This document shows, one piece after another, positions 10,468-61,748 of a DNA stretch of 64,000 nt. The notes under the pieces were generated by a model. It did no database searches, was not told the DNA's origin, and saw nothing but the letters and a program-made list of their open reading frames with translations. This DNA is from Escherichia coli (GTDB taxonomy: Bacteria; Pseudomonadota; Gammaproteobacteria; Enterobacterales; Enterobacteriaceae), in the NCBI RefSeq assembly GCF_044324875.1, contig NZ_CP172185.1; one strand, written 5' to 3'. The first letter of the stretch is position 1. Every line of letters begins with the position of its first letter. A program made the translations under genes and the position numbers.

Positions 10468-10471
10468 GTTC

Positions 10472-11023: not shown

Positions 11024-11676
<653 letters not shown>

Positions 11677-11677
<1 letters not shown>

Positions 11678-12384: not shown

Positions 12385-12438
12385 GCTATGGGCGATTCGC
12401 CGGTAGCGGATATGAATTGTTAACTGAGAACAAACTAA

Positions 12439-13698
<1,260 letters not shown>

Positions 13699-13745
13699 TT
13701 GTCTGAGAGCTGGCAGCCCCGTTCGCGGGGCTACCGCCAGACCAC

Positions 13746-14024
13746 TCATTTTTTCGGTTTAGTGTAGCTACGCATCAACTGCGTTCTGTCGATAAACTCA
13801 TGGGTCTGCGGATCATGGTAGCGAGATGGCCAGATAATCCAGGGGTCAGTTCCCAGGGCTTTCGCAATAATCATCTCTCCTTTCGGCCAGGGGCGCGATA
13901 ATGCGTTCGCCAGCGTTGAGGAACTCAAACCATTTCTGCGAGATTCCGCCGCCATTGACGTTCCCTTCTTGCGCAAACCCGCAATGATGTCAGCGGGATG
14001 CCAGTCAATGAAATTACTTTCCAT
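13746..14024 (-). CDS. sfsB: Ner-like DNA-binding regulator SfsB (Nlp)
   Basis: 92-aa ORF MESNFIDWHPADIIAGLRKKGTSMAAESRRNGLSSSTLANAL... Confidence 0.88.
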   Translation of the reverse strand: MESNFIDWHPADIIAGLRKKGTSMAAESRRNGLSSSTLANALSRPWPKGEMIIAKALGTDPWIIWPSRYHDPQTHEFIDRTQLMRSYTKPKK

Positions 14025-14252
14025 CTTTCCTCACTCCTTAAGTTAGTCGCTTTCATTCAGAACATTTCTTCTGTCGGGCATCACTATACTCCTGATGGCG
14101 TATTGTTCTAAAAAGTTCCTGTAAAGAGTGTGAATATTCAGAATATATAAAGATGTACAGCCCTATTATTCAGGTGTTATAGAGCTGAATAAGTGTTTTT
14201 ATGGAATTTACTAGAACCATCCCGCGCGCTGCGCGGGATGCGGGGGAGGGGA

Positions 14253-39895: not shown

Positions 39896-40003
39896 GGTTG
39901 CCATTTGCCCTCCGCTGCGGCGGGGGGCTTTTAACCGGGCAGGACGCCTTGTTAGCAACCGGGAACAGGACGTTCATTCAACCGTGGTCTTCGGGAGTGG
40001 GAA

Positions 40004-40888
40004 ATGAAGCCTTTTTTGCGCTGGTGTTTCGTTGCGACAGCACTTACGCTTGCAGGATGCAGTAATACTTCCTGGCGTAAAAGTGAAGTCCTCGCGGTAC
40101 CATTGCAACCGACTTTACAGCAGGAAGTGATTCTGGCACGTATGGAACAAATCCTTGCCAGTCGGGCTTTAACCGATGACGAACGCGCACAGCTTTTATA
40201 TGAGCGCGGAGTGTTGTATGATAGTCTCGGTCTGAGGGCATTAGCGCGTAACGATTTTTCGCAAGCGCTGGCAATCCGACCGGATATGCCTGAAGTATTC
40301 AATTACTTAGGCATATATTTAACGCAGGCAGGCAATTTTGATGCTGCCTATGAAGCGTTTGATTCTGTACTTGAGCTTGATCCAACTTACAACTACGCGC
40401 ACTTGAATCGCGGGATCGCATTATATTACGGCGGTCGTGACAAGTTAGCGCAAGATGATCTGCTGGCGTTTTATCAAGACGATCCCAATGATCCTTTCCG
40501 TAGTCTGTGGCTTTATCTCGCCGAGCAGAAGCTCGATGAGAAGCAGGCTAAAGAAGTGTTGAAACAGCACTTCGAAAAATCGGATAAGGAACAGTGGGGA
40601 TGGAACATTGTCGAGTTCTACCTGGGCAACATTAGCGAACAAACGTTAATGGAAAGGCTCAAGGCGGACGCAACGGATAACACCTCGCTCGCTGAGCATC
40701 TCAGTGAAACCAACTTCTATTTAGGTAAGTACTACCTAAGTCTGGGGGATTTGGACAGCGCCACGGCACTGTTCAAACTGGCGGTTGCCAACAACGTTCA
40801 TAACTTTGTTGAGCACCGATACGCATTGTTGGAATTATCGCTCCTGGGCCAGGACCAAGATGACCTGGCAGAATCGGACCAGCAATAG
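40004..40888 (+). CDS. nlpI: TPR-repeat outer-membrane lipoprotein NlpI
   Basis: 294-aa ORF with lipobox LTLAGCS and TPR repeats. Confidence 0.95.
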
Positions 40889-41067
40889 CTGACGTACACA
40901 TCAGCCCGTAATCTTTTTTGATTGCCATCACCTTAACGGGTGAGGGCGTTGTTGTTCGTTAATACACCTACTTTGAGCCGGTTCACACTTTTCAATGAAA
41001 ATTGCTGATCAATTTCATGATGAGTTATGTAGACTGGCCGCCATTAATTTTGAGGCACACGTACTAC

Positions 41068-42957
41068 ATGGCTGAATTCGAAACCACTTTTGCAGATCTG
41101 GGCCTGAAGGCTCCTATCCTTGAAGCCCTTAACGATCTGGGTTACGAAAAACCATCTCCAATTCAGGCAGAGTGTATTCCACATCTGCTGAATGGCCGCG
41201 ACGTTCTGGGTATGGCCCAGACGGGGAGCGGAAAAACTGCAGCATTCTCTTTACCTCTGCTGCAGAATCTTGATCCTGAGCTGAAAGCACCACAGATTCT
41301 GGTGTTGGCACCGACCCGCGAACTGGCGGTACAGGTTGCTGAGGCAATGACGGATTTCTCTAAACACATGCGCGGCGTAAACGTGGTTGCCCTGTACGGC
41401 GGCCAGCGTTATGACGTGCAATTACGCGCCCTGCGTCAGGGGCCGCAGATCGTTGTCGGTACTCCGGGCCGTCTGCTGGACCACCTGAAACGTGGCACTC
41501 TGGACCTCTCTAAACTGAGCGGTCTGGTTCTGGATGAAGCTGACGAAATGCTGCGCATGGGCTTCATCGAAGACGTTGAAACTATTATGGCGCAGATCCC
41601 GGAAGGTCATCAGACCGCTCTGTTCTCTGCAACCATGCCGGAAGCGATTCGTCGTATTACCCGCCGCTTTATGAAAGAGCCGCAGGAAGTGCGCATTCAG
41701 TCCAGCGTGACTACCCGTCCTGACATCAGCCAGAGCTACTGGACTGTTTGGGGTATGCGTAAAAACGAAGCACTGGTACGTTTCCTGGAAGCGGAAGATT
41801 TTGATGCGGCGATTATCTTCGTTCGTACCAAAAACGCGACTCTGGAAGTGGCAGAAGCTCTTGAGCGTAACGGCTACAATAGCGCCGCGCTGAACGGTGA
41901 CATGAACCAGGCGCTGCGTGAGCAGACACTGGAACGACTGAAAGATGGTCGTCTGGACATCCTGATTGCGACCGACGTTGCGGCCCGTGGCCTGGACGTT
42001 GAGCGTATCAGCCTGGTAGTTAACTACGATATCCCGATGGATTCTGAGTCTTACGTTCACCGTATCGGTCGTACTGGTCGTGCGGGCCGTGCTGGCCGTG
42101 CGCTGCTGTTCGTTGAGAACCGTGAGCGTCGTCTGCTGCGTAACATTGAACGCACCATGAAGCTGACCATTCCGGAAGTTGAACTGCCGAACGCAGAACT
42201 GCTGGGCAAACGTCGTCTGGAAAAATTCGCCGCTAAAGTACAGCAGCAGCTGGAAAGCAGCGATCTGGATCAATACCGTGCACTGCTGAGCAAAATTCAG
42301 CCGACTGCAGAAGGTGAAGAGCTGGATCTCGAAACTCTGGCCGCCGCATTGCTGAAAATGGCACAGGGTGAACGTACTCTGATTGTTCCGCCAGATGCGC
42401 CGATGCGTCCGAAACGTGAATTCCGTGACCGTGATGACCGTGGTCCGCGCGATCGTAACGACCGTGGCCCGCGTGGTGACCGTGAAGATCGTCCGCGTCG
42501 TGAACGTCGTGATGTTGGCGATATGCAGCTGTACCGCATTGAAGTGGGCCGCGATGATGGTGTTGAAGTTCGTCATATCGTTGGCGCGATTGCTAACGAA
42601 GGCGACATCAGCAGCCGTTACATCGGTAACATCAAGCTGTTTGCTTCTCACTCCACCATCGAACTGCCGAAAGGTATGCCGGGTGAAGTACTGCAACACT
42701 TTACGCGCACTCGCATTCTCAACAAGCCGATGAACATGCAGTTACTGGGCGATGCACAGCCGCATACTGGCGGTGAGCGTCGTGGCGGTGGTCGTGGTTT
42801 CAGTGGCGAACGTCGTGAAGGCGGTCGTAACTTCAGCGGTGAACGCCGTGAAGGTGGTCGTGGTGATGGTCGTCGTTTTAGCGGCGAACGTCGTGAAGGC
42901 CGCGCTCCGCGTCGTGATGACTCTACCGGTCGTCGTCGTTTCGGTGGTGATGCGTAA
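41068..42957 (+). CDS. deaD: Cold-shock DEAD-box RNA helicase DeaD/CsdA
   Basis: ORF 41002..42957; start at Met of [21 protein letters not shown]... (629 aa); motifs AQTGSGKT and DEAD, RG-rich repeated C-terminus. Confidence 0.94.
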
Positions 42958-42999
42958 TCATCGCTGAACAGCGAACACAATCTGTAAAATAATATATAC

Positions 43000-43031
43000 A
43001 GCCCCGATTTTTACCATCGGGGCTTTTTTTC
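43000..43031 (+). terminator. Intrinsic terminator after deaD
   Basis: ccccgat-ttttacc-atcgggg hairpin followed by cttttttt. Confidence 0.8.
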
Positions 43032-43110
43032 TGTCTTTTGTACTCGTGTACTGGTACAGTGCAATGCATAACAACGCAGTCGCACTATTTTTCACTGGAG
43101 AGAAGCCCTC

Positions 43111-44355
43111 ATGGCAACACTAACCACCACCCAAACGTCACCGTCGCTGCTTGGCGGCGTGGTGATTATCGGCGGCACCATTATTGGCGCAGGGATGTTT
43201 TCTCTGCCTGTGGTCATGTCCGGGGCGTGGTTCTTCTGGTCAATGGCGGCGCTGATCTTTACCTGGTTCTGTATGCTGCATTCCGGCTTGATGATTCTGG
43301 AAGCTAACCTGAATTACCGAATCGGTTCGAGTTTTGACACCATCACCAAAGATTTGCTGGGCAAAGGTTGGAACGTAGTCAACGGCATTTCCATTGCCTT
43401 TGTGCTCTATATCCTGACTTACGCCTATATTTCTGCCAGCGGTTCGATTCTGCATCACACCTTCGCGGAGATGTCGCTGAACGTCCCTGCACGGGCAGCT
43501 GGATTTGGTTTTGCACTACTGGTGGCGTTTGTGGTGTGGTTGAGCACCAAAGCGGTCAGCCGGATGACGGCGATTGTGCTGGGGGCGAAAGTCATTACGT
43601 TTTTCCTCACCTTCGGTAGCCTGCTGGGACATGTGCAGCCTGCGACATTGTTCAACGTCGCCGAAAGCAATGCGTCTTATGCACCGTATCTGCTGATGAC
43701 GCTGCCATTCTGTCTGGCATCGTTTGGTTATCACGGTAACGTGCCGAGCCTGATGAAGTATTACGGCAAAGATCCGAAAACCATCGTGAAATGCCTGGTG
43801 TACGGTACGCTGATGGCGCTGGCGCTGTATACCATCTGGTTGCTGGCGACGATGGGCAACATCCCTCGTCCGGAGTTTATCGGCATCGCCGAGAAGGGCG
43901 GTAATATTGATGTGCTGGTACAGGCGTTAAGCGGCGTGCTGAACAGCCGTAGCCTGGATCTTCTGCTGGTTGTGTTCTCAAACTTTGCGGTAGCGAGTTC
44001 GTTCCTTGGCGTAACGCTGGGTTTGTTTGACTATCTGGCAGATCTGTTTGGTTTCGATGACTCGGCTATGGGCCGCTTGAAAACAGCATTGTTGACCTTT
44101 GCACCGCCTGTTGTGGGTGGTTTGCTGTTCCCGAACGGATTCCTGTACGCCATTGGTTATGCTGGCTTAGCGGCTACCATCTGGGCGGCAATCGTTCCGG
44201 CGCTGCTGGCCCGCGCATCGCGTAAACGCTTTGGTAGCCCGAAATTCCGCGTCTGGGGCGGCAAGCCGATGATTGCGCTGATTCTGGTGTTTGGCGTCGG
44301 TAACGCACTGGTGCATATTTTATCGAGCTTTAATTTGCTGCCGGTGTATCAGTAA
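43111..44355 (+). CDS. mtr: Tryptophan-specific permease
   Basis: 414-aa polytopic [55 protein letters not shown]... Confidence 0.95.
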
Positions 44356-44363
44356 TTGAACGA

Positions 44364-44388
44364 GCCGGATGAGCAGTTTTCATCCGGC
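44364..44388. terminator. Perfect 9-bp-stem hairpin between convergent mtr and the 176-aa ORF; candidate terminator
   Basis: gccggatga-gcagttt-tcatccggc; no strong T-tract on either side, so function is uncertain. Confidence 0.45.
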
Positions 44389-44415
44389 AATAATTCACAA
44401 GTACACGAGATGGTA

Positions 44416-44946
44416 TCAAATAAACCCCTGTTTATTATAAAGTTCTTCAGCGAGAGCTTCCCCGTGCTCATCGAAAAAAGCATCGGCGATAGTTAAATTT
44501 TCTGCCTTAGGATTTGCCGTTATTTTGCTACCATTGGCATCAAATTCGAGCGCGATAGCGGTCTCCGAACCCCACCAGTAATAATAAATTAGCGCAAAAT
44601 TATTTTCCCCTGGCGTAATAAACTTCTCGATTCCCCGCACACAGGCCATGAGTGGCATGAAGATTTCATAGCTCTCTGAGAGAAATATGTGATCCATCGT
44701 GACTATCTGTGTTTCTTTATTAAAGTTGATATGTTCGGCATAAATATTCTTTTCACTTTCACCAGAATTACAAGCTGCAAGATTGTTAAGCATTTTTGCA
44801 GGATCGCCGTACAACCGCTGCTTCTCGATAAACCATGGCAACCAGTCGTCATGGTCTTTGATATTTGTTGCTGGTGAATGGAAAAACTTCTCGAGGTTAC
44901 TCTCGGTAATATGTGCATGAAGAAAAAAGGAAGCCGGTTCACTCAT
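44416..44946 (-). CDS. Hypothetical 176-aa protein, no recognisable family; no N-terminal hydrophobic segment, so probably cytoplasmic; in the insertion relative to K-12
   Basis: Only long ORF across this AT-rich stretch (MSEPASFFLHAHITESNLEKFF...ALEFDANGSKITANPKAEN...KQGFI); weak GAGA-type SD upstream; coding status not independently supported. Confidence 0.55.
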   Translation of the reverse strand: MSEPASFFLHAHITESNLEKFFHSPATNIKDHDDWLPWFIEKQRLYGDPAKMLNNLAACNSGESEKNIYAEHINFNKETQIVTMDHIFLSESYEIFMPLMACVRGIEKFITPGENNFALIYYYWWGSETAIALEFDANGSKITANPKAENLTIADAFFDEHGEALAEELYNKQGFI

Positions 44947-45103
44947 AATGATTTTCTCTGGTAATAAGTCGATTTGTTCATTTCTCTGTTTGGCGATGAT
45001 AAAACGATGACTATTTTATAAAAGTACAGAACTGGACCTTTCATCTATTTCATATCATAAGAAAATATATACTTGAACTGGCTCAGAATAAGCGGAATAC
45101 GAA

Positions 45104-45823
45104 ATGGGGCGTAAAGGACTACTTGCTATTGTATTGTTGAGCCTGTTTATCGCCATGATTTTTCAATTTTTCTGGCCTGCCCCACACGATGAACACGTTT
45201 TCCTGCCAGTTGAAAAACCTGTCGCACCGTCTTTAAAAATCATTCATCCTGGTGACCAGTTATTTATCCGCATTCTGAAAGCGGAAGATAAGCTGGAACT
45301 GTGGGCAAGCACCAACAACAAGCCTTACGAACTCTATAAAACCTGGACTATATGCGCGTGGTCTGGTGGCTTAGGGCCAAAACACAAACAGGGGGATGGT
45401 AAAAGCCCGGAAGGTTTTTATGCCACCAACAAAGAGTTGCTTAACCCAAACAGCCGCTATCATCTGGCATTTAATATTGGTTACCCGAATGCTTACGATC
45501 GGGCAAACGGCTACACCGGTGATTTCATTATGGTTCACGGAAACTGCGTTTCGGCGGGCTGCTATGCCATGACCGATGCTGGTATTGAAGAGATTTATCA
45601 ACTGGTGGCGCAGGCGCTGAATAGCGGGCAGAAGAGCGTGCCGGTGCATATCTTCCCGTTTGCGATGGACGAAGAAAATATGCGCCAGGCGCAGGTATGG
45701 CCGGAATATAATTTCTGGCGTATGTTGAAGCCCGGCTATGATTACTTTGAAAAAAATCGCCGATTGCCAACCATCACCGTTGAAAACCGGCGTTATAAAA
45801 TCAGCCCAACAACTCTTCCTTAA
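45104..45823 (+). CDS. YkuD-fold L,D-transpeptidase-like protein, YafK/DpaA paralogue, with N-terminal signal peptide or membrane anchor
   Basis: 239-aa ORF with hydrophobic N-terminus ([19 protein letters not shown]); conserved blocks [55 protein letters not shown] and LKPGYDYFE match the E. coli YafK sequence as I recall it, including the catalytic-Cys HG..S.GC motif. Confidence 0.8.
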
Positions 45824-46808
45824 CATCCATCGCCAGTTCAAACGAATGCAGGCGCGCCTGGTGATCGAAAATCTGCCCGTTAACCATAATCTCATCGGCG
45901 TCGGTTTCGCGCAGGATCGACTGCAAGCCGTGACGCACTTTCGCTTTATCACCCACCAGCGACATACTCAGCGCCTGCTGCACGCCATACTGCTCGGACG
46001 GTGACCAGAACTGATCCATATTTTGAATCGGCGGCGGCAGTTGCCCGGTTTCGCCACGGCGCAGCTTCACAAAGGCTTGCTGCATTGAGGTAAACAGAAA
46101 TTCAGCGTCGCGGTTGCTGTCGGCGGCGATAATATTGATGCACACCATCGCATACGGTTTTTCCAGCCGTGCCGACGGTTTGAAGTTGCTGCGATAAAGA
46201 TGCAGCGCCTGGAACAACATATCCGGCGCGAAGTGTGAGGCAAACGCAAACGGCAGACCAAGCTGCGCCGCCAATTGCGCGCTGTAAAGGCTGGAGCCTA
46301 ACAACCACACGGGGATTTTCTCGCCATAGCCTGGTACCGGGCGCACATGCGGATTGGGATCGCGGGCGTCAAACCAGTCCACCAGCTCCGCGACATCGCG
46401 GGGAAAATTATCAATATCGCCGCTCATATGACGACGTAGAGCCATCATGGTTCGCTGGTCACTACCCGGAGCACGACCCAGCCCCAAATCGATTCGCCCC
46501 GGATAGAGCGTATTAAGCGTGCCGAACTGTTCGGCGATCACCAATGGTGAGTGATTAGGCAACATCACGCCGCCAGACCCCAGATGCAGCGTAGTGGTAT
46601 TCGCCGCCAGATAGCCAATCAAAACTGATGTTGCAGCACTGGCAATGCCGGTCATATTGTGGTGTTCCGCCAGCCAGTAGCGATGATAGCCGCGCTTTTC
46701 AGCCAGACGGGCGAGGTCGAGAGAGTGGGAGAACGCTTCTCGCGCTGAAGAACCTTCGGGAATGGGGGCCAGATCGAGTAGCGAAAACGCAATGGTTTTA
46801 TCAGTCAT
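45801..46808 (-). CDS. yhbW: Luciferase-like (LLM-class) flavin monooxygenase
   Basis: 335-aa [54 protein letters not shown]... Confidence 0.92.
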
Positions 46809-46811
46809 AAC

Positions 46812-46882
46812 AGCTCACTTTGTTACCGATTAATCTTTAATACTGCATTAAAGAGTAGTTAAAGTTGTTAACAAAGTGAGCT
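46812..46882. promoter_or_regulatory. 14-bp perfect inverted repeat with 43-bp spacer, adjacent to the yhbW start
   Basis: agctcactttgtta (46812-46825) and taacaaagtgagct (46869-46882); the first half overlaps the presumed yhbW SD (gtgagc), 4 nt from the ATG. Confidence 0.5.
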
Positions 46883-46888
46883 ATTTAC

Positions 46889-47767
46889 TTACGCTTGCAG
46901 CTCCAGCCCGGCCAGCCGACGCCAGTAGCCGTTACAATCGCTGTTTGCCGTCAACGGCAGTGGCGCAGCGCCATTTTCATTGGCGCGGAAGGCGTCGAGT
47001 ATCGCGAAAGTGTCAGTACCCTGCGGTGACAGGCGGACCACATCAACCAGCCCCTGCATGGATGCCAGCTCGTTACCGAGGTTGTAAACGTAGCCGCTCA
47101 TGGTCTGAATGCCGTTGAGTACAAACACTTGTTGGTTTTCCTGCGACAGCACGTTGCGCCCGTTCGGATACTTAATGCAGCAGGTTTCGCACTCATCTTT
47201 CGGGCGGTCTTCCGAACGCGCGGTAAAGCAGCGGGCGGAGTAGGCCAGCGGCAGATGACCGTAGCTCAGGACTTCCACTTCAAACTGGTTGCGAATGCCC
47301 AGCTCATCGCACTGATTAAGCAGATTCACCAGCCAGTCGCGGGAAAGCTCCACCGGCATACACCAGCGCATCATGCCCTGTTTGAGCAATATTTTCAGTG
47401 TCACCGCGTTGTAGCAGTTCAGCGCGTGCCCGGCGACGAACGGCAGTTTGCGTTCAGCGCACATATTCACCACGCCGAGATCGCTGGCTTCAATCAGAAA
47501 CTCACCGTTCTCAACATAGCGTTTCAGTTCGCCCAGTTCAGAGGATGCCTGCACCAGCGCCAGCGTGGAGAGCACAATCTGCTTACCACTTCCGGCGAGT
47601 GATTTTGCCATCTCCAGCCAGTCGCCAACTTTGGTTGCCCGGCGCTTGCTGCATACCGCTTCACCAAGATAAATCACGTCGGCGCTGCTGGCGGCGGCCT
47701 GCTGATAAAATTCTTCCAGCGTCTCTTTTGGCCAGTACCACAGCACTGGCCCTAAGGAATATTTCAT
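46889..47767 (-). CDS. ubiV: U32-family protein of O2-independent ubiquinone biosynthesis, UbiV
   Basis: ORF 46889..47785; start at internal Met MKYSLGPVLWYWPKE... (292 aa). Confidence 0.88.
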   Translation of the reverse strand: MKYSLGPVLWYWPKETLEEFYQQAAASSADVIYLGEAVCSKRRATKVGDWLEMAKSLAGSGKQIVLSTLALVQASSELGELKRYVENGEFLIEASDLGVVNMCAERKLPFVAGHALNCYNAVTLKILLKQGMMRWCMPVELSRDWLVNLLNQCDELGIRNQFEVEVLSYGHLPLAYSARCFTARSEDRPKDECETCCIKYPNGRNVLSQENQQVFVLNGIQTMSGYVYNLGNELASMQGLVDVVRLSPQGTDTFAILDAFRANENGAAPLPLTANSDCNGYWRRLAGLELQA

Positions 47768-47775
47768 TGCTTTTC

Positions 47776-48771
47776 TCACTGCCATTTACGGTGATACGCG
47801 CCAAGGGTGGTCTGCGTGCCTTCGGACATCGACCCGAGCGTCTCCATCCACGCGCTTTGCGGTACGAAGTTTTGCGGATCGGCCTTACAACGGTCGATAG
47901 CCTGACGCCAGACTTTCGCCACCTGGCTGACATACGCCGGGCTACGCTGGCGGCCTTCAATTTTCACCGAAGCAATATTCGCCGCCATTAACTCCGGCAG
48001 CAGTTCCAGGGTATTGAGACTGGTGGGTTCTTCCAGCGCGTGATAGCGCTCGCCGTCCACCAGATAACGCCCTTTACACAGCGTCGGATAACCTGCGTTT
48101 TCGCCATCCTGATAACGGTCGATCAGCACTTCGTTCAGGCGGGATTCCAGCCCCTGCGGCGTTTGTTGCCAGCGCACGAAACGGGCCGGAGAACACGCAC
48201 CCACAGTGTTGGGCGACTCACCCGTCAGATACGACGACAGATAGCAACGCCCTTCCGACATAATGCACAGGCTGCCGAAAGCAAACACTTCCAGCGGGAC
48301 AGGTGTGACCCGAGCCAGTTGTTTCACCTGATGAATCGACAACACGCGCGGCAGCACCACGCGTGCAACGTCAAAATGGCGATGATAAAAGTTAATCGCC
48401 TCTTCATTGGTCGCCGAAGCCTGCACCGATACGTGACGTTCAATATGCGGGTAACGTTCGGCGGCGTACTCCAGCATGGCGAGGTCGGCGAGGATCAGCG
48501 CGTCGGCACCCAGCTGCGCCGCCATATCCACGGCGCGCTGCCAACGGGCGTAACCGTCCGGATGCGCAAAAGTGTTAATCGCGATGTGAAGTTTGCGGCG
48601 ATGTTGATGGACAAAACTCACCGCTTCCTGCAATTTTTTCTCGGTAAAGTTAAGGCCGGCGAAGTGACGGGCATTAGTATCATCTTTTAGCCCGATATAA
48701 ACAGCATCTGCGCCGTTTTCGATGGTCGCCTTAAGCGCCGGGAGATTTCCGGCAGGGCAGAGCAGCTCCAT
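47776..48771 (-). CDS. ubiU: U32-family protein of O2-independent ubiquinone biosynthesis, UbiU
   Basis: ORF 47776..48798; start at internal Met MELLCPAGNLPALKATIENGADAVYIG... (331 aa). Confidence 0.88.
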   Translation of the reverse strand: MELLCPAGNLPALKATIENGADAVYIGLKDDTNARHFAGLNFTEKKLQEAVSFVHQHRRKLHIAINTFAHPDGYARWQRAVDMAAQLGADALILADLAMLEYAAERYPHIERHVSVQASATNEEAINFYHRHFDVARVVLPRVLSIHQVKQLARVTPVPLEVFAFGSLCIMSEGRCYLSSYLTGESPNTVGACSPARFVRWQQTPQGLESRLNEVLIDRYQDGENAGYPTLCKGRYLVDGERYHALEEPTSLNTLELLPELMAANIASVKIEGRQRSPAYVSQVAKVWRQAIDRCKADPQNFVPQSAWMETLGSMSEGTQTTLGAYHRKWQ

Positions 48772-48979
48772 AATTTTTCCTGAAGGTTGCGCTATCAAAG
48801 CGCAAAAATGTTAACGAACTGGGATTTTAGTTAACCTTGCTGCGACAATTTTTGATTTAAGGCAGTTAAAGTTGTATTGGTGGTAGCAGCAATTTCATAT
48901 GGAATTGTTGATTTATACCGCTATGTTATTTTTCTGATATGGCAAAATAGGATGATTGTTGAAACAGGGAGTAAAACTC

Positions 48980-49504
48980 GTGTTGGATAAACTGCGTTCC
49001 CGTATTGTGCATTTGGGGCCATCTCTGTTGAGTGTACCGGTAAAACTGACGCCATTTGCGCTAAAACGCCAGGTTCTTGAGCAGGTCCTAAGCTGGCAAT
49101 TCCGTCAGGCGCTGAATGATGGCGAGCTGGAGTTTCTTGAAGGCCGCTGGTTAAGTATTCATGTGCGTGATATTGACCTGCAATGGTTTACCTCGGTGGT
49201 GAATGGCAAACTGGTCGTTAGCCAGAACGCGCAAGCTGATGTGAGTTTTAGTGCCGACGCCAGCGATCTGCTGATGATTGCGGCGCGTAAACAAGATCCG
49301 GATACGCTCTTCTTCCAGCGTCGGCTGGTAATTGAAGGCGATACGGAGCTGGGGCTGTATGTGAAAAACCTGATGGACGCCATTGAACTGGAGCAAATGC
49401 CGAAAGCCTTACGCATGATGCTGCTGCAACTGGCGGATTTTGTTGAGGCGGGAATGAAAACCGCGCCTGAAACCAAACAGACATCGGTAGGTGAACCATG
49501 CTAA
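48980..49504 (+). CDS. ubiT: SCP2-domain lipid-binding protein UbiT
   Basis: ORF 48956..49504 (TTG); start set at GTG 48980 to give MLDKLRSRIVHLGPS... (174 aa). Confidence 0.85.
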   Translation: MLDKLRSRIVHLGPSLLSVPVKLTPFALKRQVLEQVLSWQFRQALNDGELEFLEGRWLSIHVRDIDLQWFTSVVNGKLVVSQNAQADVSFSADASDLLMIAARKQDPDTLFFQRRLVIEGDTELGLYVKNLMDAIELEQMPKALRMMLLQLADFVEAGMKTAPETKQTSVGEPC

Positions 49505-50001
49505 TTCGAGTAGAAATTCCCATTGATGCGCCGGGTATTGATGCCCTGCTGCGTCGTTCATTCGAAAGTGATGCGGAAGCGAAGCTGGTTCACGATCTGC
49601 GTGAAGATGGCTTTCTGACGTTGGGGCTGGTGGCGACAGATGACGAAGGTCAGGTCATTGGCTATGTGGCATTTAGTCCGGTTGATGTGCAGGGCGAAGA
49701 CCTGCAATGGGTCGGCATGGCACCGTTGGCGGTTGATGAAAAATACCGTGGACAGGGGCTGGCACGCCAACTGGTCTATGAAGGACTCGATTCGCTTAAT
49801 GAGTTCGGCTATGCCGCAGTGGTGACGCTGGGCGATCCGGCGCTGTACAGTCGTTTCGGCTTTGAGCTGGCGGCGCATCACGATCTGCGTTGCCGCTGGC
49901 CGGGCACTGAAAGCGCCTTCCAGGTACATCGTTTAGCGGATGACGCGCTGAACGGCGTAACCGGTCTGGTTGAGTATCACGAGCATTTCAATCGCTTTTA
50001 A
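49498..50001 (+). CDS. yhbS: GNAT-family N-acetyltransferase
   Basis: 167-aa ORF; ATG overlaps the ubiT stop (ATGCTAA). Confidence 0.9.
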
Positions 50002-50290
50002 TCTCCGGGGTTTGCAGGCTGCTCAACAGCTCTGCAAACCCTGCGCCTTCCGCTACCAGACGCTCTTTTTGCCGTTTGGTCAGTTGCTTAACGCGATATT
50101 CCGCCCGTAGTGCCAGCGAACGATCGCCCACTGGCGCGGAAAACGCCAGCGTTAGTTCTCCTTTCCCGCGCAGTGCTTTCGCCCCTTTGCCGCTTTGGTG
50201 CTGCTGATAGCGGCGTTCGACATCTGTGGTGATCCCGGTATAAAGCTTATTGTCGGCGGTACGGATCAAGTAAAGAAACCAGGGTGTCAT
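49988..50290 (-). CDS. yhbQ: GIY-YIG domain protein
   Basis: 100-aa [37 protein letters not shown]...; 3' end overlaps the yhbS 3' end by 14 nt. Confidence 0.9.
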
Positions 50291-50340
50291 CGTCTGCGTC
50301 GCATGTTAAGGTCAGGCCCACAGTATAAAAGAGAACAGCA

Positions 50341-50763
50341 ATGGAAACACTCACCGCCATCAGCCGTTGGCTGGCAAAACAACATGTTGTCACCTGGTGT
50401 GTGCAGCAGGAAGGGGAACTCTGGTGCGCTAATGCCTTTTATCTTTTTGATGCGCAGAAAGTCGCCTTCTACATTTTGACGGAAGAAAAAACGCGCCACG
50501 CGCAGATGAGTGGGCCGCAGGCGGCAGTTGCCGGAACGGTAAACGGTCAGCCGAAAACGGTAGCGTTAATTCGCGGCGTGCAATTTAAAGGCGAGATCCG
50601 CAGGCTTGAAGGTGAGGAAAGCGACCTCGCACGCCACGCGTACAATCGTCGCTTTCCGGTTGCCAGAATGCTGTCGGCCCCGGTGTGGGAAATCCGGCTT
50701 GATGAAATCAAATTCACCGACAACACGCTGGGCTTTGGTAAAAAAATGATCTGGCTACGTAAC

Positions 50764-50784
<21 letters not shown>
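50341..50784 (+). CDS. yhbP: UPF0306-family protein (pyridoxamine-phosphate-oxidase-like fold)
   Basis: 147-aa [37 protein letters not shown]... Confidence 0.9.
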
Positions 50785-51294
<510 letters not shown>

Positions 51295-51295
51295 A

Positions 51296-52045
<750 letters not shown>

Positions 52046-52117
52046 TTATTCCCAAGAATTGATAGTGAGCGTAATATTCACGCGCTCAATTATCATAACT
52101 TATTCCTGGGGAATGCT

Positions 52118-53158
52118 ATGACTGGTCAGTCTTCATCTCAGGCGGCAACGCCCATTCAGTGGTGGAAACCCGCGCTTTTCTTTCTCGTTGTCATTGCTGG
52201 TCTCTGGTATGTGAAATGGCAACCTTACTACGGCAAAGCGTTTACTGCTGCCGAAACCCACAGTATCGGTAAATCTATCCTTGCGCAGGCGGATGCTAAT
52301 CCGTGGCAGGCGGCGTTGGATTACGCGATGATCTATTTCCTCGCGGTATGGAAAGCGGCGGTGCTGGGGGTGATCCTCGGTTCGTTGATTCAGGTGCTGA
52401 TCCCGCGTGACTGGTTGCTGCGTACGCTTGGGCAATCGCGCTTTCGCGGCACGCTGCTGGGAACGCTGTTTTCGCTGCCGGGTATGATGTGTACCTGCTG
52501 TGCGGCTCCGGTCGCGGCGGGAATGCGTCGCCAACAGGTATCGATGGGCGGGGCGCTGGCATTCTGGATGGGGAATCCGTTGTTAAACCCGGCGACGCTG
52601 GTGTTTATGGGGTTTGTCCTCGGCTGGGGCTTTGCCGCGATTCGTCTGGTGGCGGGGTTGGTGATGGTATTGCTGATTGCGACGCTGGTGCAAAAATGGG
52701 TGCGTGAAACACCGCAAACGCAGGCACCGGTCGAAATTGACATACCGGAAGCGCAGGGCGGGTTTTTTAGCCGCTGGGGCAGGGCACTATGGACGCTTTT
52801 CTGGAGTACGATCCCGGTTTACATCCTTGCGGTACTGGTGTTGGGTGCCGCTCGCGTCTGGTTATTCCCCCATGCCGATGGTGCTGTCGATAACAGCCTG
52901 ATGTGGGTGATTGCGATGGCGGTAGCGGGATGCTTGTTTGTCATTCCCACGGCGGCAGAAATTCCAATTGTACAAACGATGATGCTGGCAGGCATGGGAA
53001 CCGCTCCGGCGCTGGCATTGTTGATGACGCTCCCGGCGGTGAGTTTGCCGTCACTGATTATGCTGCGCAAAGCGTTCCCGGCGAAAGCCTTATGGCTGAC
53101 AGGGGCGATGGTGGCAGTGTCTGGTGTGATTGTCGGCGGGTTGGCGCTGTTGGCCTAA
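52118..53158 (+). CDS. yraQ: Putative permease, inner membrane
   Basis: 346-aa polytopic ORF. Confidence 0.9.
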   Translation: MTGQSSSQAATPIQWWKPALFFLVVIAGLWYVKWQPYYGKAFTAAETHSIGKSILAQADANPWQAALDYAMIYFLAVWKAAVLGVILGSLIQVLIPRDWLLRTLGQSRFRGTLLGTLFSLPGMMCTCCAAPVAAGMRRQQVSMGGALAFWMGNPLLNPATLVFMGFVLGWGFAAIRLVAGLVMVLLIATLVQKWVRETPQTQAPVEIDIPEAQGGFFSRWGRALWTLFWSTIPVYILAVLVLGAARVWLFPHADGAVDNSLMWVIAMAVAGCLFVIPTAAEIPIVQTMMLAGMGTAPALALLMTLPAVSLPSLIMLRKAFPAKALWLTGAMVAVSGVIVGGLALLA

Positions 53159-53193
53159 GATGTTGGATGCTCCTGAATACAGCACTGGACGGT

Positions 53194-53217
53194 CCCCTCT
53201 CCCCTTTGGGGAGAGGG
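53194..53217. terminator. Strong GC hairpin between convergent yraQ and dolP
   Basis: cccctctcccc-ttt-ggggagaggg, a 10-bp perfect stem with 3-nt loop. Confidence 0.6.
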
Positions 53218-53279
53218 TTAGGGTGAGGGGAACAGGTCGGCTAAGGTGTGAATATTTACTTCAACGACCGATCAATGGC

Positions 53280-53855
53280 TTATTTAATAAACGTAAACGC
53301 CGTGGTTACCCGCTTCACGCCGCTTACCCGGCTGGCAATATCTGCCGCCGCTTTCGCTTCACGTTCAGTCACTAGTCCCATCAGGAACACTTCACCGTTT
53401 TCGGTGGTCACTTTCACGTTGGACGATTTCACCAGGTCGCTGGTTAAGAGCTGCGAACGCACTTTGGTGGTGATCCACGTATCGTTAGACGCTTCGCCCA
53501 GACCAATCGGCTGGCCCTGACGAATCTCGTTATACACTTCGTTGGCACCGTCTACGCCCATAGCAATCTGTTTGGCGCGAGCCGAAAGTTCAGCGTTTGG
53601 TGACTGCCCAACCAGCAGCACTTTGCCCTGATACGCCGTGACATTAATACGGGTTTCTTTCTTAATCTGTTCGTCTTTCGACAATGCGCTGTTTACGCGC
53701 ACTTCCAGGGTACCATCGTCCACCTGGGTGCCGACACTGCGTGGGTCAGTTGCGGCTTTGGTACCTACAGCAGCGGTACCCACTACGGCAGCGGCAACAC
53801 AACCTTGCAACAGCAGCGCGGAAAGAAGGACTGCGATTGGCGATAATGCCTTCAT
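53280..53855 (-). CDS. dolP: Dual-BON-domain outer-membrane lipoprotein DolP
   Basis: 191-aa ORF with lipobox LLLQGC. Confidence 0.94.
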   Translation of the reverse strand: MKALSPIAVLLSALLLQGCVAAAVVGTAAVGTKAATDPRSVGTQVDDGTLEVRVNSALSKDEQIKKETRINVTAYQGKVLLVGQSPNAELSARAKQIAMGVDGANEVYNEIRQGQPIGLGEASNDTWITTKVRSQLLTSDLVKSSNVKVTTENGEVFLMGLVTEREAKAAADIASRVSGVKRVTTAFTFIK

Positions 53856-53864
53856 GTATTCTCC

Positions 53865-54455
53865 TTAAACATCCTGGTGAGGGAAAAGCGTGTTATCGAT
53901 CAGATCGCACAGGCAATTTACCGTCAGCATATGCATTTCCTGAATGCGAGCACTACGATGCGAAGGAATGCGGATCTCCACATCCTGTGGCCCTAACAAA
54001 CCTGCAAGTTCACCGCCGTCATAGCCGGTTAATGCCACAATGGTCATATCACGCGTAACGGCAGCTTCTACCGCTTTTACAATATCGCGGCTGTTGCCAC
54101 GGGTGGAAATGGCTAACAATACATCTCCCGCATGACCCAGCGCCCGCACCTGTTTTGCATACACTTCATCATGTAAGCGATCGTTGGCAATCGCCGTTAA
54201 GACAACATTATCAGTATTTAGTGCAATGGCAGGTAAGCTGGGCCGCTCCGTTTCGAAACGGTTGATCATGCTGGCAGCAAAATGCTGTGCATTGGCAGCG
54301 GAAGTTCCATTACCACAACAGAGGATTTTGTTGCCATTGAGCAGAGACTGAACCAGCGTCATAGCTGCACGCGAGATGGCATCCGGAAGCGCCTCTGCCG
54401 CCGCAATTTGAGTTTGAATGCTTTCAGTGAAGCAAGCTTTAATTCTTTCTTGCAC
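53865..54455 (-). CDS. diaA: DnaA initiator-associating protein DiaA (SIS domain)
   Basis: 196-aa [64 protein letters not shown]... Confidence 0.94.
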
Positions 54456-54474
54456 GCTAATCCTTAAACCTTAA

Positions 54475-54870
54475 TTATGAGTGGTCATTAAAGGCATCCT
54501 TAATCCACTCAACCTCATTCCCGGTGAAGGCTACCACATCGAACCGGCAATCCACAGTATCAAAACTCCCATTATGACGCGCGAGCCACAAGCGGGCAGT
54601 CTGTAATAATTTGTGTTGTTTGCTGCGGGTCACACTGGCTGCCGCGCCGCCATAAAGCGCAGAGCGGCGGTAACGCACCTCGACAAAAACGGTGGTCCGG
54701 CCTTCACGCATTATCAGATCGATCTCGCCGCCACGCTCGTTCACGTTAGCGGCGATAAACCGCAGTCCTTTGCCTTCCAGCCAGCGACGCGCTTGTGCTT
54801 CCCACGCATCGCCGGTCTGTTTGGTGGTTAACTGGCGGGGACTACCTGACCTTGTTGGTACTGTAGCCAT
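54475..54870 (-). CDS. yraN: UPF0102 protein YraN
   Basis: 131-aa ORF; start overlaps the lpoA 3' end. Confidence 0.9.
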
Positions 54871-56864
54871 GATAACTTCCTGTTAATCACGCAATCCGGG
54901 TTAGCCGTCAGACTTCCGGTATTACCGTTGATTTCAAAACCCTGAACCTGGCGCATTTGTGAGAAATGATTTGCCAACGACCAGGCATCGACGCCCATCG
55001 CATACATGCGAGCCAGCGAATAATCGTTGTTCACCGCGCTGAGCGCCTGCTGCATTAACGGCAGATTACCGCCTGCCAGCATCGGGATTTCGCTGTACTG
55101 CAAGCCTTCCATCTCCAGACGGAAATCCGGGCCTGCGGTGCCTTGTGCGCTGCGGGAACTGGCGTACAGCGTTGCACCGCTCTGGCTACCGTTACGCATG
55201 GCGATCATCGGTTTGATAAAAGCGATTTCACCCGGCGTTGCCACAATGTAGACCGCATCGACACGACCGCCATTATTGGTGAACTGGTCATCGGTTGGCG
55301 TGGTTTGCAGCGTTGGATTGTTGGTCGTCATGCCGGAGTCGGTTGTCGCTCTGGGAGTAATCGGGCTACCCGTTAAAGCAATACCAGAACCGCCGTTAAC
55401 ACCCGCGCGTAATTCGCTGGTGGAACCAAATTTTTGTTGCAGAACGGTGCCGCCACCCAGTTTCTGCCACTCTTGCGCAAACGCATTGGCTACGCGATCG
55501 CCCAATGAACTGCGCGGGATCAGCACCAGCGGCGCTTGTTTACCCTGGTCACGAATATGACGCGCTGCATCGCGCGCTTCGTCTTCCGGCGAAAGCGCGA
55601 AGTAACAAATATTGACGCGGTTTTCGATATTCTCCGGCTGGTTCAGTGCCAGCACGTTCAGCGGAGTGTTGCTCTTCAGCAACTCTTCAACGTTATTTTT
55701 CAGCAACGGACCGACCACAATACTCGCGCCATCCTGCTGAACCTGGCTTAAGATCTGGCTAAGTGGTTGTGATGAGGTATCGTAGATTTTCAGCTCTGCG
55801 GATGGATTTGCGGGTGCGCTTACCGCTGCGGTGCTTGTCGCCGGGGCGCTTACAGGCACCGGCTGGGCCGCAGGCTGTTCACCGGTCAGATCGCTAACCG
55901 AGGCTTGTGCCGGGCTGGCAACGCCATCCACGGTTTGCGGCTGAGGTTGTTCTGCTACGTCTGCGGCAGGTGCGGCAGCTACCTGGGCCGCCACTGGCTG
56001 AGTGCCGATATTTTTCGCCGCTTCAAAGCCTTGCTGAATAGTGCGACCAAATACCGCTGCCTGGCCATTCAGTGGCAACAGCAGGGCGATTTTGTTGGTC
56101 GATGCGGGTTTAAACGCTTTTACGTTGACCAACTGCGTTGGCAGCATTTTCGCGCCCGGGTTGTTCGGATAACGTTTCTGCCAGTCGGCGATCCCGGCTT
56201 TCATCATGTCGGGATCGTTACGGTTATCAAACCAGATGCGCTGCAGATCCAGCCAGCCTTGCAGAATATTTTCGTCGGCATTGATCACCAGCGTATTCGC
56301 CTGTTCCTGAGTCATGGAGGAGAGCGCCTGCCAGGTGGCGTCAATATTCTGCTGCTTTTCTTTCGCACCGAGCAGCGGTTCCTGAGCAATTAACGCGCGC
56401 AGTAAATCAATGGAAGGACGCCCCTGGCTGGCATCGATTTTTGCCTGCCAGTAACGCGCTTGCTGGTTTTGTTCTAAATCTGCAGGTGTGATTTTCGCCA
56501 GCAAGTTTTGCGCGCCAGCAAAATCTTTCTGCGCCAGTTTAATCTCTGCCGCCAGCAGTGTTTTCTCGCGACGCTGAGAATCGTTCAGTTCTTGCGGTAG
56601 TTGGTTAAACAACTCCACCGCCTGTCCGGTTTTACCTTCTTTCACCAGTGCACGAATGGCGAGTAATTGCCAGTTGATCCTGGTATCATCAGAACTTTGC
56701 TGCATCTGTTGCAGGTAAAAGGCAGAATCAGCCTGCGCCGTGCCCTGCATATAAGCAGTGGACTGATCGGGAGTATGGGTGCCACAACCGGCGAAAATCA
56801 GGGCTGCCAGAACAACAGGCAGACAACGCGCGGCTTTCAAACGAGAAAATGTTGAGGGTACCAT
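54828..56864 (-). CDS. lpoA: Outer-membrane lipoprotein activator of PBP1A, LpoA
   Basis: ORF 54828..56894; start at internal Met [27 protein letters not shown] (lipobox), 678 aa; Ala/Pro/Gln-rich linker mid-protein. Confidence 0.9.
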
Positions 56865-56928
56865 AATGTATCCAGTGATATTTTTTTTACGCAATGCTCA
56901 ATATTAAATCGGCAATACGGACGACACA

Positions 56929-57792
56929 ATGAAACAACACCAATCGGCGGATAATTCTCAGGGCCAGCTTTACATTGTACCGACGCCAATCGGCAATCTG
57001 GCGGATATCACCCAGCGTGCGTTGGAGGTATTACAGGCCGTTGATCTGATTGCCGCCGAGGATACGCGTCACACCGGTTTATTGCTGCAACATTTTGGGA
57101 TTAATGCTCGGTTGTTTGCGCTGCACGACCATAACGAACAACAAAAAGCCGAAACGCTGCTGGCGAAGCTGCAAGAGGGGCAAAACATTGCGCTGGTTTC
57201 CGATGCCGGAACGCCGCTAATTAACGATCCTGGCTACCATCTGGTGCGTACCTGCCGTGAAGCGGGGATTCGCGTGGTGCCGCTACCCGGGCCGTGTGCT
57301 GCTATCACTGCGTTAAGCGCCGCGGGTTTACCATCCGATCGTTTTTGTTATGAAGGCTTTTTACCTGCCAAATCAAAAGGCCGCCGTGATGCGCTAAAAG
57401 CCATTGAAGCGGAGCCGCGCACGCTGATTTTTTATGAATCTACCCACCGTCTGTTAGATAGCCTGGAAGATATCGTTGCGGTATTAGGCGAATCCCGCTA
57501 CGTGGTTCTGGCGCGTGAGCTGACCAAAACCTGGGAAACCATTCACGGCGCGCCCGTTGGCGAGCTGCTGGCGTGGGTCAAAGAAGATGAAAACCGTCGC
57601 AAAGGCGAAATGGTACTGATTGTCGAAGGCCATAAAGCACAGGAAGAAGACTTACCCGCCGATGCCCTGCGCACGCTGGCGCTGTTGCAGGCAGAACTGC
57701 CACTGAAAAAAGCGGCGGCGCTGGCAGCAGAAATTCACGGCGTGAAGAAAAATGCGCTGTATAAGTATGCACTGGAGCAGCAGGGAGAGTGA
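56929..57792 (+). CDS. rsmI: 16S rRNA C1402 2'-O-methyltransferase
   Basis: 287-aa [38 protein letters not shown]...; divergent from lpoA. Confidence 0.93.
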
Positions 57793-57841
57793 TTACAGGC
57801 GTCGCAGCAGGAATAGCGTTGCAACGCCTGTAGCAGGCGAG

Positions 57842-58609
57842 TTAACGACGACACATCTCATCAATCATGCATGTGAAATAGTTATGCAGCCATAAAAATG
57901 AAGCCGGGATAGCGGTAGAGACTTTAGCCGTGAGAAAACGTTCTGTCGCATCCTGCTTTCCTTCGCCAGTCACCAGTAACAAAACTTCGCGGGCATTGAG
58001 AATATCCTTCAGGCCTAAGGTGATCCCACGAGTCACGGGACGGCCCGCAGTTTTTAACATCTCATGTTGCTGTGTTCTGGCATCAAGTTGACTGATATGG
58101 CAGGCCGGTTGCAGGTTTTCTCCCGGTTCGTTCAGCCCAAGATGACCGTTTTTCCCCAATCCGAGAACGCATAAATCCAGACCGCCTTTGCGCGCAATCA
58201 GGTTCGTTACCCGTTCGCACTCTGTCTCATTTATCTCTTCGGAGCGAAAGCTGATGAGTTGGTCTTCACGCAGCCCCAGCGGCTGCACGATATGCTGTTG
58301 TAGGAAAGTTTCGCAGGTGCCAGGCATCGTTAATGGCAGATCCACCCATTCGTCGAGCTTCACGAAGGTGAGCTGGCTGACATCAACCTGCTGCTGGTGG
58401 ATTTTTTCTACCAGATAATGATACGTCAGTAATGGCGTGGCTCCGGTCGCCAGGCAAATCACGGCATCCGGTTTGCTACGGATCACGGCCAATAAATATT
58501 CGCTGGCACGTTCACTTAACGCCATATAGTTTTCAACTTGCTGAAGGGTTTGCACAGGATGAAATTCCTTAAGTAAAGAGGCACCACCAGACGCAGTGCC
58601 TCGTTCCAT
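57842..58609 (-). CDS. agaI: Galactosamine-6-phosphate deaminase/isomerase (NagB-like)
   Basis: 255-aa ORF MERGTASGGASLLKEFHPVQTLQQVENYMALSERASEYLL...; about 50 bp from rsmI. Confidence 0.88.
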   Translation of the reverse strand: MERGTASGGASLLKEFHPVQTLQQVENYMALSERASEYLLAVIRSKPDAVICLATGATPLLTYHYLVEKIHQQQVDVSQLTFVKLDEWVDLPLTMPGTCETFLQQHIVQPLGLREDQLISFRSEEINETECERVTNLIARKGGLDLCVLGLGKNGHLGLNEPGENLQPACHISQLDARTQQHEMLKTAGRPVTRGITLGLKDILNAREVLLLVTGEGKQDATERFLTAKVSTAIPASFLWLHNYFTCMIDEMCRR

Positions 58610-59401
58610 TTACAAAATTCCGAATGCGGAACAAACAATAGAGAGCACAAAAGTCACGCCGATTAACAGCACCGGATGCGCTTTTTTCACCCGCAGGAAG
58701 TAATACATCAGCAGGGTGTAGGCCATCGGTAAAATATTCGGGAAGACTTTATCGAAGAAATCCTGCTGCAGCGCGACGCTGTGGGTACTGTCGATGTCAA
58801 ACGATGTCACCACGTTAATATGAACATACGAAGCGATCAGCCCGCCGATTACCGTGATCCCGAGGATGGTTGCCGAACGGGCAATCATCTGCGAGTTCTC
58901 TCGCACTTTATCGATCGCCTTCACGCCGACTGAATAACCGACGTGGGTCCAGCCGACGCGCAGGAAAAAGATAAGCAGGTAAACGGCGAAAAATAGAATC
59001 GGCCCCAGCAAGTTTCCCTGGCTGGCAAATGATGAGCAAATTCCCGCCATAATCGGCAATAAGGTAAACCAGAAAATCGCATCGCCAATCCCGGCGATTG
59101 GGCCAAACAGTGCTACTTTGAGGCCTTTAATGGTGTCGCGGTTTTCTCCTTTTTCTTCCATCGAAATTAATAACCCCATCAGGAATCCGACCAGATTCGG
59201 GTGGGTATTAATAAATTCGAGGTTATCTTTCATCGCCGCGCTTAGGCCCGGTTTGTCGTCCTTATAAATCTTTTTCAGGATCGGCAACATCGCCCAGGTA
59301 AAACCGCCCGCCTGCATCCTTTCGTAATTAAAGCTCGCTTGCAGCAGTGACGAACGAAAGCCCAGACGGGTGATATCTTTTTTACTGATTTCAGATCCCA
59401 T
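58610..59401 (-). CDS. agaD: PTS N-acetylgalactosamine/galactosamine EIID component
   Basis: ORF 58610..59548; start at internal Met MGSEISKKDITRLGFRSSLLQASFNYERMQAGGF... (263 aa). Confidence 0.88.
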   Translation of the reverse strand: MGSEISKKDITRLGFRSSLLQASFNYERMQAGGFTWAMLPILKKIYKDDKPGLSAAMKDNLEFINTHPNLVGFLMGLLISMEEKGENRDTIKGLKVALFGPIAGIGDAIFWFTLLPIMAGICSSFASQGNLLGPILFFAVYLLIFFLRVGWTHVGYSVGVKAIDKVRENSQMIARSATILGITVIGGLIASYVHINVVTSFDIDSTHSVALQQDFFDKVFPNILPMAYTLLMYYFLRVKKAHPVLLIGVTFVLSIVCSAFGIL

Positions 59402-60194
59402 TGCTGTAGTCCTCTTCTTCATTTTTACTGGCAACGGGCTGCGGTTGCGCTTGCTGCCGGGATTTCGCATTGAAAAACTCATACACCGCAAAGCCTGCGC
59501 CCAGTACGGCAACCGGCAACAGGTTGCTGACCTGGATGTAGCAAACAAACAGGAAACCGGCGATCAGGTAAGGGATATATTGCGCTTTGAACATCACGCG
59601 CAGCAGCAAGCCAAAACCAACGGCAGGCAGAATACCGCCAGCCACTTCAAAGCCGTGGGTCAGCCAGGCGGGCATCGCTTTCACCAGCGCCTGCATCGCC
59701 CCCTGTGCCAGGTAAGTACAGAGGAAAGCAATCACCGCATACGCTGAAGCGACGATGAGCATCGTTGTCCAGTTAAGTCGGGAAAACGCTGCCGTATCCG
59801 CCTCTTTTGCGCATTTATCGGCTTTGGTCATAAATAATGAGAAAGCGGAATAGAAGAACAGAATGACGTACTGCATTAACAAACTAAACGGCAGGCCAAG
59901 ACCAATTGCCGTTTTGGCATCAACGCCCGTAGACCATGCAATGACAGTGGTCATCAGACCCGCCATAATCGGGTTGGGCGGCTGAACACCACCTGCAGGG
60001 GTTAATCCGGCGAAAGCCAACTCTGTCAGACCACCGGTAATTAAGCCAGTCTGAATATCACCGAGAATAGCGCCAGTTAGGGTACAAACGATTATCGGGC
60101 GGAATAAAAATAAGGCTTCCAGCCAAAAATCAATCCCCAGAACGAAAACTAACGCCGCCAGGGATAATCCCTGAAGTAGGGTTATTTCATGCAT
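59391..60194 (-). CDS. agaC: PTS galactosamine EIIC component
   Basis: 267-aa polytopic ORF MHEITLLQGLSLAALVFVLGIDFWLEALFLFRPIIVCTLTGA... Confidence 0.92.
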   Translation of the reverse strand: MHEITLLQGLSLAALVFVLGIDFWLEALFLFRPIIVCTLTGAILGDIQTGLITGGLTELAFAGLTPAGGVQPPNPIMAGLMTTVIAWSTGVDAKTAIGLGLPFSLLMQYVILFFYSAFSLFMTKADKCAKEADTAAFSRLNWTTMLIVASAYAVIAFLCTYLAQGAMQALVKAMPAWLTHGFEVAGGILPAVGFGLLLRVMFKAQYIPYLIAGFLFVCYIQVSNLLPVAVLGAGFAVYEFFNAKSRQQAQPQPVASKNEEEDYSNGI

Positions 60195-60232
60195 TTTTAT
60201 TACCTCAAACCAATATTAAGGCGATTTTAGAT

Positions 60233-60709
60233 TTAGTCAGGGATTTGTTCTTTTTGATCGCCAGGGACGTCCTGAATGAAAACATTCACGCCACGTTGTT
60301 TAATAAAACGTAAGTCCGTGAGATCCTGGTCATCGACATAAACTTTACTGCTGATTTGCTTTTTCCCTTCCGAGAAATGCATATTGCCGACGTTGACATC
60401 TTTCAGGTCAATACCACCTTCTACCAATTTACGTACCGTTTGTGGCGTACGGCAAATCAGGAAGATCTTTTGATGCGGTGCAGCTTTGCCGATGACGTTA
60501 ATGGTTTTTTCGATAGTAAAGAAACGAATGCCAAAGCCGTAGGTTTCTGCGGTAATACTCATTAATTTCTGTTGAATATCATCGTTAGCGACAACATCAT
60601 CCACAACTACCAGCAGATTTGCACCGATGGTAGATGTCCAGGTCACGCCAACCTGACCGTGAACCAGACGGTTATCAATACGGGTTAAGAGAATATTTGG
60701 ACTGCTCAT
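60233..60709 (-). CDS. agaB: PTS galactosamine EIIB component
   Basis: 158-aa ORF MSSPNILLTRIDNRLVHGQVGVTWTSTIGANLLVVVDD... Confidence 0.93.
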   Translation of the reverse strand: MSSPNILLTRIDNRLVHGQVGVTWTSTIGANLLVVVDDVVANDDIQQKLMSITAETYGFGIRFFTIEKTINVIGKAAPHQKIFLICRTPQTVRKLVEGGIDLKDVNVGNMHFSEGKKQISSKVYVDDQDLTDLRFIKQRGVNVFIQDVPGDQKEQIPD

Positions 60710-60875
60710 TGTGTAATCCTCACCATAAAGTTGAATAATATAATTTTTTTAAATATATTATTGTTGCGATATTTTACTGATGTATTTATTAAGGTTTAGT
60801 TATCTCCTTTACCATTAAGGCACTCCCCGATATTAATCGGGAAGTACATTGGGATAAATCATAAAAAACTAATGA

Positions 60876-61748
<873 letters not shown>

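Follow-up and report, generated by a model that had tools for sequence, protein, structure and literature searches.

The rsmI–agaI junction of an Escherichia coli strain is probably an intact, unoccupied form of the yraHIJK fimbrial site

The window analysed here (the whole stretch of DNA, 64,000 nucleotides) carries the convergent genes rsmI and agaI as direct neighbours, without the fimbrial operon yraHIJK that lies between them in E. coli K-12. This convergent adjacency, together with an orthologous junction sequence, is what characterizes the empty allele of CFT073, ST69 and E. albertii. We consider it highly probable that the junction is the intact, unoccupied form of the site and that yra was gained in the allele of the A, B1 and E lineages, rather than that yraHIJK was deleted from this genome.

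Both genes at the junction were assigned by equivalog models of NCBIfam. The RsmI open reading frame scored 629 bits against NF011570, 16S rRNA (cytidine1402-2'-O)-methyltransferase (cut-off 502), and the AgaI open reading frame scored 471 bits against NF007291, galactosamine-6-phosphate isomerase (cut-off 271). The stop codon of rsmI is a TGA at positions 57790–57792. An earlier note on this DNA had placed the two stops at 57792 and 57842, about 50 bp apart, and this proved exact, with 49 bp between them. The spacer has no room for any gene. The same note had claimed that yraHIJK is absent from the site, and a tblastn search with the four Yra proteins of K-12 (E ≤ 1e-3) indeed found no homologue of YraH, YraI, YraJ or YraK in the whole 64-kb window. 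An operon of the Yra type, whose usher belongs to the 'Gamma*' clade (Stubenrauch et al. 2017, PMC5717340), is recognized by an usher, a chaperone and subunits like YraJ, YraI, YraH and YraK, and the window contains none of these. The coordinates of the features are collected in Table 1.

Table 1. Features of the rsmI–agaI junction and related loci (window coordinates unless a locus is named)
Feature	Position	Strand	Description and basis
rsmI (16S rRNA C1402 2'-O-methyltransferase)	56929–57792	+	287 aa; open reading frame list and NCBIfam NF011570
agaI (galactosamine-6-phosphate isomerase)	57842–58609	-	255 aa; open reading frame list and NCBIfam NF007291
Spacer between the convergent rsmI and agaI stops	57793–57841		49 bp; same spacing annotated in TUM1886, ST69, GN25 and CFT073
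Allele-specific segment of about 100 bp	57786–57885		Unrelated at the DNA level to the K-12 locus; ungapped comparison with the K-12 flanks
Imperfect inverted repeat	57790–57835		Hairpin of about 18 pairs, no U-tract on either strand; folding
Tract near-identical to TUM1886 (L002)	about 56300–61300		From rsmI to kbaY, spanning the junction; binned mismatch map
Third-allele locus	L010 (E. coli 18KM2445, NZ_CP151004.1), 2135–9837		Also in NZ_CM192120.1 (strain MEW)

The K-12-derived strain ER1709 confirmed the gene order that the earlier note had given for K-12. The order is rsmI, yraK, yraJ, yraI, yraH and agaI, with 5,449 bp between the rsmI and agaI stops. The slot lies between the same convergent core genes as in the window, which is E. 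coli proper and 97.6–98.7% identical to K-12 in the flanks. However, the base-by-base comparison showed that the homology of the left flank stops abruptly at 57785 and that the homology of the right flank restarts at 57886. The segment between these points contains the terminal codon of rsmI and its stop, the spacer of 49 bp, and the end of agaI (14 codons and the stop). The two alleles differ by a replacement, in which about 100 bp of the window correspond to 5,485 bp in K-12 (positions 9487–14971 of the ER1709 locus, L001). Besides the four fimbrial genes, the K-12 stretch holds an AT-rich upstream region and a terminator of rsmI consisting of a hairpin and a T-run. The C-termini of both core proteins differ as well: RsmI ends in EQQGE in the window (287 aa) and in EQQG in K-12 (286 aa), while AgaI ends in WLHNYFTCMIDEMCRR in the window (255 aa) and in WLHSNFICLINT in K-12 (251 aa). 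A comparison of the 100-bp segment with both strands of the 5.5-kb K-12 insert gave no more than chance matches of 12–26 nt. The flanks were also searched for a gradient of divergence toward the junction, because such a gradient would point to balanced alleles of ancient origin or to the edge of an imported segment. None was seen between the window and K-12, as the flanks have 2–7 mismatches per 200 bp up to both breakpoints, which is an ordinary divergence of 1–3%.

The origin of the 100-bp segment was addressed with an outgroup sample, obtained by scanning for AgaI with one genome per species. The scan gave six loci, which were typed by tblastn; E. fergusonii and genomes named E. marmotae or E. 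ruysiae are not among them. The agaI gene adjoins rsmI in E. albertii, Escherichia sp. E1V33, E69 (labelled E. coli) and Trabulsiella odontotermitis. The window segment differs from the E. albertii junction at about 7 positions (about 93% identity), and it also aligns to the junctions of E1V33 and E69; in all three, the alignment includes the spacer hairpin and the AgaI tail. The shared flanks are 91.5% identical to the window in E. albertii, 96% in E1V33 and 93–94% in E69. Since the identities of the segment and of the flanks are comparable, the divergence of the junction is close to that of the surrounding core genome. It should be noted that the AgaI tails group by allele class and not by species: the empty alleles share a tail of the form FTC[MVL][IT]DEMCRR before the stop, and the occupied alleles of K-12, E. 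whittamii and 18KM2445 contain NFICLI. Judged from these comparisons, the empty allele appears to be old, being found outside E. coli in E. albertii and two further Escherichia lineages, and within E. coli in the B2 and D groups. Meanwhile, E. whittamii carries an orthologous yraHIJK (83–90% amino acid identity) with the same boundaries as in K-12, and Escherichia sp. MOD1-EC7003 has a far more diverged four-gene operon (53–65% amino acid identity) in the same slot. These two operons indicate that the occupied state is also old within the genus. The site may have been polymorphic for presence and absence over a long time, or yra may have been gained early and then displaced by the empty allele in some lineages. 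Two observations on T. odontotermitis (L008, 9179–11668) stand apart from this: the identity of its AgaI to that of E. coli is no more than about 63%, yet the neighbouring AgaD and RsmI are 92% and 95% identical, and its agaI–rsmI spacer contains REP-like elements.

The same sequences bear on an alternative explanation, namely that the ancestor had a K-12-type site and yraHIJK was recently lost by a deletion between rsmI and agaI. Decay of yra operons does occur, as some K-12-type inserts are broken by IS1, IS3 or IS1203 and partial deletions are present in several genomes. Nevertheless, we regard a recent deletion as very improbable here. Removal of yraHIJK could not regenerate the E. albertii-like 100 bp or create the alternative endings of RsmI and AgaI, and we therefore take the window allele to be orthologous and unoccupied. 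In addition, the junction is free of yra remnants, IS elements and repeats, and its 100-bp segment is not found inside the K-12 insert. The earlier note had suggested looking for deletion scars or short repeats; this check revealed none; the window carries an alternative allele that is intact and shared with E. albertii. Two genomes with secondary losses served as positive controls for deletion. PT109 carries an IS1 and lacks yraH, yraI and the 5' portion of yraJ, while yraK and the truncated yraJ are kept. In EC25, an IS1 fuses a truncated mtr to agaI. Both genomes retain the K-12-type agaI of 251 aa ending in NFICLINT, whereas the window has neither the K-12-type gene ends nor the K-12 terminator of rsmI. 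As a separate observation on EC25 (L011, NZ_CP035123.1, 4058–5892), about 20 kb of genes in the K-12 order are missing at this place, including lpoA, rsmI and yraHIJK, and the 3' half of rsmI has no match elsewhere in that genome.

The distribution of the allele states was surveyed in 5,426 complete E. coli genomes. The empty, contiguous junction is present in 1,835 of them and the K-12-type yra insert in about 3,523, of which 3,264 are near-complete. CFT073 (B2), ST69 O15:H18 (D) and GN25 have exactly the architecture of the window (287 aa, 49 bp and 255 aa). For CFT073 and ST69, this means an rsmI of 864 nt, the 49-bp spacer and an agaI of 768 nt without any fimbrial gene; the window differs from them in that, over its wider sequence, no genome of the collection is closely related to it. 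The junction is interrupted in the genomes of K-12 (A), O157:H7 (E) and O111:H8 (B1). These counts and their structuring by lineage bear out the view of the earlier note that a real accessory-genome difference is involved. They also leave a practically negligible probability that the assembly lost or collapsed the operon. We found no point in support of such an artefact; the identical junction occurs in the 1,835 complete genomes, CFT073 included, and its sequence is unique and offers no repeat that could collapse.

A third allele was found in two of the 5,426 genomes, 18KM2445 and MEW, in which a divergent yra-like operon of four genes lies beside rsmI. Its proteins are 46–65% identical to YraHIJK of K-12 and 67–86% identical to those of the MOD1-EC7003 operon, with which it shares about 80% DNA identity. 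The yra-like operons of 18KM2445, MEW and MOD1-EC7003 occupy the same slot as yra, with the left boundary at the rsmI stop as in K-12, in contrast to the window, which has no operon. Between the third-allele operon and agaI, there is about 1 kb of DNA with a GC content of 33%. This rare allele may be undescribed so far. Taken more broadly, the gap between agaI and rsmI could have served for a long time, and across species, as a cassette site. It would have at least three states (empty, yraHIJK, and a yra-like operon of about 50–65% identity), each with its own agaI 3' end; recombination via the flanks would swap these states between Escherichia lineages, and selection on the adhesin repertoire might maintain the polymorphism. 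We put this forward only tentatively, as a possibility that is rather doubtful at present. Such a site would agree with published data on ushers, according to which YraJ and its relative UshC never occur together (Stubenrauch et al. 2017, PMC5717340). UshC itself was considered as an alternative allele of the rsmI–agaI site and was rejected, as its locus tag, ECSF_0165, places it elsewhere.

The composition of the K-12 insert differs from that of its surroundings. Its GC content is 44–50% as compared with 52–55% in the flanks, and falls to 29% in the region upstream of yraH. Between K-12 and E. whittamii, the inserts are 83.7% identical and the flanks about 92.5%. The insert therefore looks acquired. 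The signs of transposition or site-specific insertion were searched for at its boundaries, and the only direct repeat found there was a shared 6-mer, with nothing longer than 6 nt; the insert contains no mobility genes, neither IS elements nor an integrase. Because the insert is free of repeats, IS elements and an integrase, recombination through the flanks appears to be the most likely route. The lower-GC four-gene chaperone-usher operon yraHIJK would thus have been brought in by homologous recombination via the flanking core genes, replacing the native junction of about 100 bp and giving rise to the allele of K-12 and of the A, B1 and E lineages. The incoming allele would have carried along its AT-rich regulatory region, the terminator on the rsmI side and a different 3' end of agaI. 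Recombination through the flanks would still be shifting the alleles of this locus between lineages.

Traces of such exchange can be seen around the junction of the window itself. In the tract listed in Table 1, there are 0–2 mismatches per 500 bp between the window and TUM1886, and positions 57300–58300 are 100% identical, while on both sides of these approximately 5 kb the two sequences differ by 1–3%. The two genomes thus share a recombination tract here. Over the left 17.8 kb (positions 40000–57785), the closest complete genomes are GN25 (98.8%), 18KM2445 (98.7%) and the ST69 clones (98.5%), so the source lineage is poorly represented among complete E. coli genomes. GN25 was isolated from a night heron and 18KM2445 from a dog. 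Of the two closest genomes, GN25 is empty at the site and 18KM2445 carries the third allele.

These data raise the possibility that the lineage once had yraHIJK or a yra-like operon and regained the empty allele by recombination through the flanks. The junction-spanning tract near-identical to TUM1886 within flanks that differ by 1–3%, the different allele held by 18KM2445, and the report of Yra in some phylogroup D strains (PMC8767327) all speak for such an allele replacement. Still, we judge it unlikely, though less so than a simple deletion: GN25, ST69 (D) and CFT073 (B2) are all empty, a gain in the E/B1/A lineage and not a loss elsewhere has been proposed in the literature (PMC6896753), and recombination between two strains with the empty allele leaves the state of the site unchanged. 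We thus prefer the reading in which the site of this strain was never occupied. As to the value of the locus for placing the strain, which the earlier note had expected, the empty site does put the strain outside the E, B1 and A lineages. This placement is only coarse, since the locus undergoes allele exchange, and the split of E/B1/A from the rest is blurred by recombination, as illustrated by the TUM1886 tract and the third allele of 18KM2445.

The difference in the presence of yraHIJK is already known. The operon is considered to have been acquired by the E/B1/A lineage (González-Alba et al. 2019, PMC6896753). Yra is significantly associated with non-B2 isolates (PMC11565901); B2 strains lack it, and group D shows a lower prevalence with some Yra-positive strains (PMC8767327). 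Among urinary isolates, yra transcripts were detected in A and B1 only (PMC4128348). The text of Wurpel et al. 2013 (PMC3559732) contains no usable statement on the distribution of yra, the data being given in the figures. With yraHIJK documented as a lineage marker, gained in E/B1/A and missing in B2 and most other lineages, the importance of the present finding beyond annotation is slight. The minor new points are the exact boundaries of the alleles, the orthologous relationship of empty junctions in different species and the rare third allele. What changes is the interpretation: in all probability, this strain lost no fimbrial operon and carries the older form of a site that was never occupied. 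In comparative analyses, it is thus K-12 that should be treated as derived. In addition, the locus offers a small, clean example of an accessory operon that would behave as an allele of a core-gene interval, moving by flanking homology without the machinery of a mobile element.

The statement of the earlier note that nothing lies between the two stops held for genes, but the spacer consists almost wholly of one strong hairpin. Its minimum free energy is -24.3 kcal/mol on the plus strand and -23.9 kcal/mol on the minus strand, with z scores of -3.1 and -4.0, respectively. The stem is G+C-rich on both strands, as in an intrinsic terminator. However, the U-run 3' of the stem is missing: the stem is followed by GCAGGCGAG on the plus strand and by AATCACTCT on the minus strand, whereas rsmI of K-12 is followed by a canonical hairpin and TCTTCTTTT, a T-run terminator. 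As a consensus scan of positions 57500–58100 detected no intrinsic terminator either, we rejected the hairpin as a Rho-independent terminator. Between the window and ST69, the spacer with the hairpin shows 4 differences over 68 nt. In an alignment of five distinct sequences, 91% of the cells are paired and there is one compensatory pair (G-C to A-U in E69), a result matched by 96 of 500 shuffles. The hairpin is a plausible candidate for a bidirectional 3'-end element or an RNA-stabilizing element.

Several minor differences were noticed in the neighbourhood. In TUM1886 (L002, 7311–8102), codon 27 of agaD is an in-frame stop and the annotation lists the gene as a pseudogene, while agaD of the window (58610–59401) is intact. 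In CFT073 (L014, NC_004431.1, 32449–33548), yraR adjoins yhbP with no yhbO annotated, and K-12 and ST69 have yhbO at this place. The intergenic region between yraQ and dolP in the window (53153–53280) is hyper-divergent from K-12, which has REP-type palindromes there. The window, TUM1886 and ST69 share a different palindromic repeat in this region, GGTCCCCTCTCCCCTTTGGGGAGAGGGTTAGGGTGAGGGG, so that one type of intergenic repeat is swapped for another; the repeat resembles the boxC class.
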